Source of the DNA: Candidatus Nanohalobium sp.
GTDB taxonomy: Archaea; Nanohalarchaeota; Nanosalinia; Nanosalinales; Nanosalinaceae
Direction of reading: 5' to 3'
Assembly (NCBI GenBank): GCA_042217545.1
Contig: JBDGSM010000056.1
Coordinates: 1 to 26,444 of the forward strand
Length of the DNA: 26,444 bases
The translations under genes were made by a program, and so were the position numbers. Shown piece by piece: positions 6,477 to 8,761 of this stretch (its first letter is position 1; every line of letters starts with the position of its first letter). The notes below the pieces were generated by a model. The model worked only from the letters and a program-made list of their open reading frames with translations. It ran no database searches and was not told the DNA's origin.

Positions 6477-6788
6477 ATGGACGAAGAACGTAAGAAAGAG
6501 ATTGCGGCAGTCGGAAGCGAGGAGTTCACCCTTGGTTTCGAACTTGCCGGAGTGAAGAAAGTATTCAACCCTGAGGACTACCGGGAGGAGATCCAGGAAC
6601 TCACCGACAGGGAAGACCTCGGCATCGTAATCGTCGAGGACTCGGATCTCGAAGAGCTTCCAGCAAGGATCAGGAGAAGCGTAGAGGAATCAGTTGAACC
6701 TGTAGTAGTCGCACTTAACGAGGAAGCGGAAAGCGAGAGACTTCAGGAAAAAATCAAGAGAGCAATCGGAGCGGACATCACACAATGA
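6477..6788 (+). CDS. atpF: A-type ATP synthase subunit F
   Basis: IAAVGSEEFTLGFELAGV and IKRAIGADI motifs. Confidence 0.96.
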   Translation: MDEERKKEIAAVGSEEFTLGFELAGVKKVFNPEDYREEIQELTDREDLGIVIVEDSDLEELPARIRRSVEESVEPVVVALNEEAESERLQEKIKRAIGADITQ

Positions 6789-6823
6789 ATTTCGATAATC
6801 TATACTATAAGGTGAATCAATAA

Positions 6824-6874
6824 ATGAAAATTCGAAGAATTTTCTTGGAAAAAACCACCAAGGGTGGCTTTTGA
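6824..6874 (+). CDS. Upstream mini-ORF 1 (MKIRRIFLEKTTKGGF*), encoded by double-hairpin element copy 1
   Basis: SD GGTGA 6811-6815, ATG 6824, TGA 6872-6874 directly followed by an in-frame ATG at 6875. Translation is not proven. Confidence 0.5.
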   Translation: MKIRRIFLEKTTKGGF

Positions 6875-6877
6875 ATG
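6826..6877 (+). repeat. Double-hairpin stop/SD/restart element, copy 1
   Basis: GAAAATTC-GAA-GAATTTTC (8-bp perfect stem), then AAAAACCACC-AAG-GGTGGCTTTT (9/10 pairs), then GAATG. Confidence 0.8.
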
Positions 6878-6961
6878 GCACAGCAAGAACTTCAGCAGAC
6901 AGACGCTTCCGAAAATCAAAGATTTTCTCGGATTGCAGAAAATCGCGGAGGCGATTTTTGA
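6875..6961 (+). CDS. Upstream mini-ORF 2 (MAQQELQQTDASENQRFSRIAENRGGDF*), possibly the former AtpA N-terminus plus element copy 2
   Basis: In frame with both mini-ORF 1 and atpA; TGA 6959-6961 abuts the atpA ATG at 6962. Confidence 0.5.
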   Translation: MAQQELQQTDASENQRFSRIAENRGGDF

Positions 6962-6964
6962 ATG
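6911..6964 (+). repeat. Double-hairpin stop/SD/restart element, copy 2
   Basis: GAAAATC-AAA-GATTTTC, linker ending TTGCA, AAAATCGC-GGAG-GCGATTTT, then TGAATG. Confidence 0.8.
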
Positions 6965-8689
6965 GGACAAATCTACAAAGTTACAGGACCGGTCGTAATC
7001 GCGACCGGGATGAACCCACAGATGTACGACGTAGTATCTGTCGGGGAAGAAGGCCTGATGGGCGAGGTCATCCAGATCGAAGGAGACCACGCATACATCC
7101 AGGTCTACGAAGACACGACAGGAGTAAAACCAGGAGAACCAGTAGAAAACACGGAGAAACCATTATCTGTCGAACTTGGACCAGGCCTACTCGGCTCTAT
7201 CTACGACGGACTTCAGAGGCCTCTACCACAGCTTGAGGAACAGTCAGGAGACTTCATCGCAAGGGGAGAAGAAGCAGCAGGAATCGACCTTGACGAAGAA
7301 TACGAGTTCAAGCCAGCTGTTGAAGAAGGCGACGAAGTACATGAGGGAGACGTGATTGGAAGAGTAGAGGTCAAATTCGGAACCCACAAAGTACTCGTAC
7401 CTCCAGAAACAGAGGGAACAGTCGCAGAAGTCAACTCAGGAAACCACACCGTGACAGAAACAGTAGTAACCCTGGAGAACGGCGAAGAAATCCAGATGAG
7501 ACAGGAATGGCCTATCAGAAAGGCAAGGCCTGTCGAAGACAACAAGAGGCCTGAAGTACCGCTCATCACAGGACAGAGAGTGCTGGACGGCCTATTCCCT
7601 ATCGCCAAGGGAGGAACAGCCGCGATCCCGGGACCTTTCGGTTCAGGGAAGACAGTTACACAGCAGTCACTGGCAAAGTTCTCCGACGCAGACATCATCG
7701 TATACATCGGATGCGGAGAGCGTGGGAACGAGATGACAGAAGTTCTGGAAGAGTTCCCGGAGCTTGAAGATCCTCAGACTGGCGACAAAATCATTAATCG
7801 TACAGTACTGATCGCGAACACGTCAAACATGCCTGTTGCTGCGAGAGAAGCTTCGATCTATACCGGAGTTACAATCGCAGAGTACTTCAGGGACATGGGC
7901 CTTGACGTTGCACTGATGGCGGACTCTACTTCAAGATGGGCTGAGGCAATGCGTGAAGTATCCGCGAGACTTGAAGAGATGCCTGGTGAGAGAGGTTACC
8001 CAGCTTATCTTGCTTCAAGACTGGCAGAGTTCTACGAGAGGGCTGGAAGAGTCGATCCTCTTGCAGAAGTGGATCCAGGAAGCGTTTCGATCATCGGAGC
8101 TGTTTCACCTCCGGGTGGAGACTTCTCGGAGCCGGTCACGCAGAACACGCTCAGAGTTGTGAAGAACTTCTGGGCCCTCGATGCGGACCTGGCGGAGAAG
8201 AGACACTTCCCTTCGATCAACTGGGACGAGTCCTACTCAGGATACAGCGACATGCTGTCCGGTCACTTCCAGGAACAGGTCAGGGACGACTGGAACGACA
8301 AGATCCAGAGAGCCCGTGACATCCTGCAGAAGGACGGAGATCTCCAGGAGACAGTACAGCTCGTCGGAAAGGACGCACTTCCCGACAGGGAAAGATTGAC
8401 TCTTGAAATCGCAACGCTGGTCAAGGAGTTCTTCCTCCAGCAGAACGCGTTCCATCCAGTCGACGAGTACTCCTCACCAGAGAAAACATACCAGATACTT
8501 GACTTGATCCTGAAATGGGGTGACAGGGCCTACGAGACACTTGAGAAAGGCGCTCTCGTGGAGGACATCATCACACTGGACTCCAAGAACAGGATCTCCG
8601 AGCTAAAGTTCAGCGAGGACTACATGGAAGTCAAGGAAGAAGTTCAAAACCAGATGAGAGAAGAGTTCGACGAAGTCGTCGAACAATAG
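6962..8689 (+). CDS. atpA: A-type ATP synthase catalytic subunit A
   Basis: Walker [38 protein letters not shown] and FYERAG; 575 aa with no intein-sized insertion. Confidence 0.99.
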
Positions 8690-8698
8690 GTGATCAAA

Positions 8699-8755
8699 AT
8701 GTTGAAAATCCAGAGACTTTCAGCTTTGCAAAAAATCACCACAGGTGATTTTTGA
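8699..8755 (+). CDS. Upstream mini-ORF 3 (MLKIQRLSALQKITTGDF*), encoded by element copy 3
   Basis: SD GGTGA 8689-8693 overlaps the atpA stop; ATG 8699; TGA 8753-8755, then ACA-ATG of atpB in the same frame. Confidence 0.5.
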   Translation: MLKIQRLSALQKITTGDF

Positions 8756-8761
8756 ACAATG
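8704..8761 (+). repeat. Double-hairpin stop/SD/restart element, copy 3
   Basis: GAAAATC-CAGA-GACTTTC (6/7 pairs), linker ending TTGCA, AAAAATCACC-ACA-GGTGATTTTT (10-bp perfect stem), then GAACAATG. Confidence 0.8.

Follow-up and report, generated by a model that had tools for sequence, protein, structure and literature searches.

A dispersed double-hairpin repeat behind start codons of core genes in nanohaloarchaea and the short frames that stop at the next start

Why do the start codons of atpA and atpB in a Candidatus Nanohalobium genome carry three related double-hairpin elements, each read as a short frame ending beside the next start? The initial annotation of this locus offered two alternatives: a palindromic element that inserts at gene starts and brings its own stop, SD and ATG, or a coupling device that tunes output of the A3B3 head subunits. 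Here we ask which of these, if either, fits the occurrence of the element in this genome and its relatives. The window (the whole stretch analysed, 26,444 nucleotides) holds an A-type ATP synthase operon, with genes assigned by Pfam, and belongs to a genome of 1.03 Mb, called G000; other G numbers denote the relatives compared with it. Its proteins are acidic, as fits a nanohaloarchaeon.

Three cassettes at the starts of atpA and atpB

On re-reading the sequence, we reproduced the positions and shared layout that had been reported for the three elements, hereafter cassettes, and recovered the same three short frames (uORFs) of 16, 28 and 18 codons, which end in G-G-F, G-D-F and G-D-F before the TGA (Table 1). 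Their stops begin 3, 3 and 6 bases before the next ATG for uORF1, uORF2 and uORF3. The two hairpins of each copy exceeded those of shuffled sequences, with z-scores for copies 1–3 of −2.3, −2.2 and −3.1 as RNA and −3.7, −3.2 and −2.4 as DNA, and the SD-like words of the cassettes match the 16S 3' end (contig C58). Opening energies at the new starts were 8.1, 11.2 and 7.4 kcal/mol for cassettes 1, 2 and 3. Searching Rfam gave three weak matches of 14.7–16.1 bits, far under gathering thresholds, and the double-hairpin family was absent from the 20 best repeats listed by a general repeat search of the window.

Table 1. Features at the atpA and atpB junctions of the window
Feature	Position	Strand	Basis
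atpF, A/V-type ATP synthase subunit F, upstream gene	6477..6788	+	Pfam PF01990
Original atpA initiation region: ATACTA word 6802–6807, SD AGGTGA 6810–6815	6802..6815	+	Same context directly 5' of atpA in relatives without a cassette
uORF1, 16 codons plus TGA, from the original atpA start through cassette 1; stop adjoins ATG 6875	6824..6874	+	Sequence
Cassette 1: hairpin 1 6826–6844, hairpin 2 6850–6872, SD GGTGG 6863–6867, TGA, new ATG	6826..6877	+	Model R1, 32.6 bits
uORF2, 28 codons plus TGA, from ATG 6875	6875..6961	+	First 11 codons are the ancestral AtpA N-terminus severed by cassette 2
Cassette 2: hairpin 1 core 6911–6927, hairpin 2 6939–6958, SD GGAGGCGAT 6947–6955, TGA 6959–6961, new ATG 6962	6909..6964	+	Model R1, 53.2 bits
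atpA, 575 aa, start predicted at the ATG of cassette 2	6962..8689	+	Pfam PF02874/PF00006
Original atpB initiation region: SD AGGTGAT overlapping the atpA stop, ATG 8699	8688..8701	+	Same context directly 5' of atpB in cassette-free relatives
uORF3, 18 codons plus TGA, ending 3 bases before atpB	8699..8755	+	Sequence
Cassette 3: hairpin 1 8701–8724 (one mismatch), hairpin 2 8731–8753, SD AGGTGAT 8743–8749, TGA, new ATG 8759	8701..8761	+	Model R1, 36.9 bits
atpB, 467 aa	8759..10162	+	Pfam PF02874/PF00006

The left SD and ATG at both atp junctions are the gene's original ones. Cassette 2 is inserted after codon 11 of an N-terminal extension of AtpA, and a matching extension is fused to AtpA in cassette-free G002, G012, G016, G060, G061, G063 and others. 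In 39 of 43 genomes an ATACTA-like word lies just 5' of the SD or start of atpA, and a similar word is found directly before many other starts.

A dispersed repeat and the position of its stops

A search for further copies, which the initial annotation had proposed as a check, found dozens in G000. A profile iterated from nine G000 seeds gave 80 hits of at least 8 bits, compared with 11 in a Markov-shuffled genome whose best hit reached 12.3 bits, and 44 of 53 non-overlapping loci scored above that shuffled maximum. The repeat measures 50–60 bases, with a core made up of a 17-base hairpin, a linker of 7–10 bases and a second, related hairpin; the loop of hairpin 1 has three bases and closes with A (26 of the 28 triloops). 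Copies occur in three settings: behind start codons; in intergenic DNA, also between convergent genes, or beside tRNAs; and in frame inside genes.

About 24 G000 copies follow a start codon; the genes concerned are for the most part ribosomal, translation and ATPase genes, 11 of the 24 encoding ribosomal proteins. Twenty-two were chosen by eye: eS27, radA, uL5, aIF1, uL23, uL4, uL1, uL10, serS, a prephenate-dehydrogenase-like gene, uS7, rrp42, sufU, uS9, uL13, top6A, uS15, spt4, a phosphodiesterase and the three window copies. Most names come from Pfam, with radA and the dehydrogenase named by eye from the sequence; uL24 and the start of mazG bring the number to 24. All 24 have a start left of hairpin 1 that opens a frame stopping at −6 to +5 of the gene start, the upstream start of radA, cassette 1, uS9 and spt4 having been read by eye from the sequence. 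Expanded cassettes with three or four hairpins, still with one open frame ending at the start, are seen in the L operon of G000 between uL14 and uL24 (C24:8353-8457), at uL22 of G001 and G002, and at uL10 of G005 and G015. The uL23–uL2 junction of G000 (C24:13377-13483) is a run of N of cassette-like length and is therefore unscorable.

Intergenic and tRNA-adjoining copies carry neither SD nor start. Hairpin 1 is joined to repeated tRNA 3' ends or lies directly before tRNA genes at several places in G000 (C14:100-230, C17:20150-20560, C42:1030-1200, C54:1-160 and C41:14900-15020), a genome in which only 18 tRNAs were called. Inside genes, the MazG insert is exactly 51 bases long and absent in all three aligned relatives (G001, G002, G003); a Hel308-type helicase and an AsnB/Dph6 fusion have two in-frame inserts each, partly shared with G001 and absent in G003, G017 and G021. 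The frame of an 8-oxoguanine glycosylase gene also contains a repeat match (L135:293-1201; G000 C23:30892-31803).

The rule for start-codon copies is that the stop abuts the start, not that the frames share a phase. The TGAs had been described as in frame with both the upstream ATG and the downstream gene, which is true of all three window copies; among 23 tabulated start-codon copies of G000, however, 9 share the gene's frame, 13 lie in the −1 frame (ending by overlap) and 1 lies in the third frame, in counts where kin and copies are not independent of each other. The type of joint follows phase, the base after the new start being A in 11 of 13 −1-frame cassettes and in 1 of 9 in-frame cassettes of G000.

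To take this rule out of sample, we used a profile derived solely from G000, a fixed rule for choosing the frame and a stop zone of −4 to +1. A survey of 688 junctions, covering 38 genes in 35 genomes, yielded 38 cassettes outside G000 besides G000's own 11. Thirty-five of the 38 stop within the zone, compared with 8 of 96 for the other two frames of 48 cassettes; stop positions at starts are thus non-random, rather than the scatter of positions and frames that the initial annotation had set against its own proposal. Among the 38, the stop falls at +1 (the −4 overlap) in 13, at −2 in 15 and at −3 in 5. The three misses are uS3 of G008, which lacks an SD-led start and where an ATG without SD ends at −2; uS9 of G014, where an inner GTG was taken and an outer GTG ends at +1; and uL13 of G030, with a stop at +23. 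The peptides encoded by the short frames are not conserved, and a conserved-peptide reading was rejected on that ground. For Haloferax, the available part of one report states that reinitiation needs gaps below about 20 bases, with a drop of 40–60% at 13–14 bases and loss at 22–23 (PMC10666635).

Filled, empty and decayed junctions

Empty orthologous sites, another proposed check, were found at the atpF–atpA and atpA–atpB gaps of most relatives. Between atpF and atpA, 18 of 43 family genomes have an SD-led short frame (17 of them coupled, G057 not) and 25 have none; between atpA and atpB, 10 of 40 have a short frame (10 of 10 coupled), 7 a longer gap and 23 a plain junction, so that 30 of 40 lack a short upstream frame. 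The coupled counts at both junctions include decayed copies. With the cassette missing from both atp junctions in most relatives and standing before many unrelated genes, the A3B3 tuning device finds no support in the form proposed, and ATPase-specific regulation in general was rejected on the same evidence. The longer atpA–atpB gaps, of 240–700 bases in the 7 family genomes and G030 (L015, L017, L018, L025; G046, G051, G067, G069), look, in those inspected, like unrelated ORFs that overlap the atpA stop and end at the atpB SD. The AtpA frame of G013 (L028) has 1109 codons and two split matches, and is likely to hold an intein.

Cassette content is patchy: most genomes lack a cassette at any given junction, and genomes of one genus disagree at the majority of sites, cassettes 1 and 2 both being absent from the congener G002. 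Cassette 3 has a 92% identical counterpart in G023 whose phase is shifted by one base, and each of the two terminates at the start. The atpB junction of G003, a congener of G023, keeps only the right end of cassette 3, as expected from deletion between the two SDs; right-end-only junctions were also seen at uL2 of G002 and uS5 of G017.

Some filled sites are more alike than the genomes that carry them. G054, from another genus, differs from cassette 2 and its flanks by one mismatch over about 95 bases, with AtpA proteins 84% identical, and at uL1 a stretch of about 104 bases is identical between G000 and G002, with G001, the sister of G000 on the tree, empty there. Same-site copies in G001, G018, G022 and G047 have diverged, so strict constraint alone is unlikely to have produced the near-identical patches. 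We infer from these alignments that short patches may have passed laterally between non-sister genomes. None of 101 within-genome copy pairs was at least 85% identical, and recent spread inside one genome is therefore unsupported. Identity was 0.73 for same-site copies versus 0.65 for same-genome copies, a difference that would also fit an old insertion with many losses.

Searches for a mobilising enzyme covered Y1, TnpB, tyrosine integrase and reverse transcriptase families. The HUH/RAYT or IS200/605 transposase suggested as a partner was not found in 25 family genomes (Y1 transposase PF01797 in 0 of 25, in 1 of 41 overall and in 1 of 3 outside the family), and G000 has no reverse transcriptase by this search. 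It does have one TnpB-type gene over the cut-off, one weak TnpB match and one integrase; no repeat copy lies beside the TnpB, integrase or Y1 genes found. Viral contigs gave 0 matches to two patterns. No consistent target duplication was seen: there is none at MazG, the cleanest site, and at starts it amounts mostly to the start codon plus one base. Imperfect inverted ends of 8–9 bases occur in the MazG and intergenic copies, and are eroded in start-codon copies.

Model R1 matched 51 of 70 genomes of the class and 39 of 49 of the family, with 0 to 30 matches per genome (34 of 41 at a looser cut). Copies are numerous in G000, G055 and G058, and G013, G016, G017 and G020 go without. An exact pattern of 36–48 bases occurred in 8 places in 185,579 genomes, 5 labelled Nanohaloarchaea, 3 other archaea with genomes of 0.9–1.1 Mb and none labelled bacterial. 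These three non-nanohaloarchaeal genomes hold 14, 7 and 13 matches, which fall between genes, in frame inside genes and at starts, and the repeat thus extends beyond nanohaloarchaea; in G070, from this second archaeal group, two frames span it. Coupling in the group is looser: stops lie at −12 and +11, and one start has no other start 5' of it. When 61 genomes were drawn from the order of one second-group genome, 20 matched, a count made without an AT-matched control. The fibrillarin of a second-group genome has a nearest cluster that is mostly Nanobdellota, and the group is likely, by this sequence comparison, to belong there. The first fibrillarin codons of G072 (L192:1556-1590), behind a cassette, themselves resemble hairpin 1.

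Competing readings and known counterparts

We consider it probable, with moderate confidence, that the dispersed repeat is a non-autonomous mobile insert that persists behind starts only where the frame of the old start stops at the new start, which would allow termination–reinitiation. The repeat would insert by an enzyme or by short-patch recombination. A ribosome loading at the original SD and ATG would translate a throw-away peptide, open both hairpins, terminate no more than a few bases from the new ATG, then reinitiate using the freed internal SD; for atpA this would happen twice in succession, giving an AtpA without 11 ancestral N-terminal residues. Because the old start opens a short frame ending at the new start, the insert would survive before essential genes. 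Hairpin 2 would block ribosome loading from solution and so, as proposed, make the gene dependent on this hand-over. Cassettes would be lost by deletion between the two SD repeats, or would decay from hairpin 1 onward with frame, stop and SD kept. The self-neutralising insert of the initial annotation thus fits the further copies, the empty sites and the non-random stops, whereas its in-frame rule fails in general and its A3B3 device lacks support. Tolerance alone does not explain the skew towards core genes or the persistence of the SD clamp, and the best reading adds that the clamp on the new ribosome-binding site was possibly selected.

On a second reading the cassette, whatever its origin, is kept by selection as a regulatory leader at the starts of ribosome, translation, RNA polymerase and ATPase genes. 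Hairpin 2 would then make coupling strict or set the level of output, and might do so through a shared RNA-binding factor or salt-dependent melting. The start region took 9.7 kcal/mol to open in 48 cassettes versus 5.2 in 469 empty junctions, and opening energy often stayed high where the hairpin-1 pattern was lost (median 9.2, n = 30, versus 5.0, n = 370), in a group that is mixed since the pattern missed some real hairpins. Hairpin 1 covaries, with two-sided changes in 6 of 7 pairs and 96.7% pairing; covariation was taken from hairpin 1 only, as hairpin 2 is poorly registered in alignments A3/A4 (67.5% paired) and A4 includes seeds and both-strand duplicates. Shared-site cassettes were as conserved as flanking coding DNA, or more so, in several pairs, and the ribosomal-protein skew would also suit a leader. 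Against this stand junctions that are empty in most genomes, congeners with different sets, the 10 of 49 family genomes without an R1 match, and the same repeat in frame inside genes and between convergent genes. Moreover, the four SD core bases of cassettes are predicted to be no less accessible than those of empty sites (modelled unpaired probability 0.25 versus 0.29); some decayed leaders also lack a clamp (1.9 to 5.2 kcal/mol). We think a selected regulatory leader rather unlikely.

Two further readings were weighed. Cassettes might arise on the spot, through template switching that duplicates and folds back A-rich sequence of the locality and the SD–start region, converging in shape. Within the helicase gene, resident sequence can be aligned to the 5' arm of hairpin 1, and that arm recurs after the insert; AsnB/Dph6 has a repeated arm, uS5 of G023 is flanked by a 15-base repeat of the SD–start region, and the multi-hairpin expansions (uL24, uL22, uL10) and the failure to find a mobilising enzyme point the same way. 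Yet the fixed 17-base hairpin-1 word, linker and loop turn up again in contexts that have nothing in common, the second archaeal group included, the 36–48-base pattern hits so few places, and the MazG insert has no local template, which together make a local origin improbable. Alternatively, the insert could be bypassed at the RNA or ribosome level, by splicing, TGA read-through or a prfB-type +1 shift, to give one N-terminally extended protein. The prfB shift site has a comparable arrangement of SD, Phe or Leu codon and TGA, in which the three window copies and several others end, and reading through the TGA of cassette 2 would give AtpA its ancestral N-terminus back. But a frame shared with the gene and closed by a stop at −3 is lacking in 14 of the 23 G000 copies and in 33 of the 38 from other genomes, which rules out read-through as the general mechanism. 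At cassettes 1 and 2, a +1 shift would take the ribosome out of the gene's frame. Splicing would remove any need for such close spacing of stop and start, and no Rfam family reached its threshold. Bypass is in our view very improbable.

Returning to the tolerated insert, a bolder extension would make it a DPANN-wide element that moves with no transposase of a known kind. It would pass between genomes that co-occur, in patches of about 100 bases targeted to SD-led core-gene starts, and would be lost when the DNA from one SD to the other is deleted. Partial domestication would have turned it into a clamp that forces ribosomal and ATPase genes onto ribosome hand-over and trims N-termini. We regard this as speculative and unlikely in its full form. 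The absence of a mobilising enzyme from our searches, together with the putative short lateral patches, would point to a novel way of moving. What the repeat offers meanwhile is an element that gets into operons of the most vital kind and leaves them working, in symbionts whose genomes are streamlined to 1 Mb, and dozens of natural empty, filled and decayed versions of a junction, which make DPANN termination–reinitiation and SD function directly testable. It also bears on annotation: gene starts change, with AtpA predicted to lose 11 residues, and in-frame loops are added.

The initial annotation knew of no description of this arrangement, but the same logic is in print for mycobacterial interspersed repetitive units (MIRUs). 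According to the available part of a 2025 review, these seem to be mobile and to land at start codons, where their frame becomes coupled to that of the gene, with likely little effect on expression (PMC12548453). As far as the accessible portions of two papers go, MIRUs share with the archaeal repeat a length of 40–100 bases, 40–50 copies, internal inverted repeats, empty and filled sites and a start-codon location (PMC12548453, PMC3184786). The archaeal repeat has tens of copies, empty and filled sites, and a start-codon frame ending at the next start; unlike MIRUs it is AT-rich, uses the gene's old start, makes joints at −3, −2 and +1 where MIRUs have one −4 overlap, and clamps the SD in its own stem, and the 4-base target repeat of MIRUs is not consistent here. 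It is MIRU-like by layout and mode of working, set beside MIRUs by description, with no sequence relation expected. Supply et al. reportedly studied MIRUs in 1997.

Rickettsia palindromic elements (RPEs), in the available part of their description, are likewise palindromic, and both intergenic and in frame inside unrelated genes; they measure about 150 bases and encode a conserved peptide, whereas the archaeal repeat has 50–60 bases, is read in any frame and includes a start-codon class (PMC10969869). In-frame insertion in unrelated genes with orthologues that lack it (MazG, helicase, AsnB/Dph6) is the RPE-like feature seen here. Neisseria REP2, by the available section of one paper, has 120–150 bases and carries a promoter (PMC3184786). 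Unlike REP2, the archaeal repeat is placed 3' of the old start, where it gives rise to a short frame coupled to the gene. Elements of the REP/REPIN type, which RAYT (Y1) transposases mobilise, are short-hairpin doublets with dozens of copies and strand polarity. The archaeal repeat has the same doublet, copy number and polarity, but no Y1 gene in the family genomes searched and many copies inside translated sequence. Coupling in Haloferax volcanii, in the accessible parts of two reports, shares a stop a few bases from the next start and an SD inside the upstream frame, and is enriched in subunits of heteromeric complexes (PMC6728339, PMC10666635). There both frames are real genes, whereas the upstream frame of the archaeal repeat is a non-conserved by-product of the insert. 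The element works like a MIRU or RPE but does not have the 4-base target repeat and single −4 overlap of MIRUs, the target-site duplication of MITEs (judged at MazG) or, in the genomes searched, the repeat-flanked Y1 transposase of REPINs, and a search of the literature (main texts, chiefly open-access) found no published description of the family. A layout already known from MIRUs thus recurs in an archaeal family undescribed in the literature found, apparently as an independent case.
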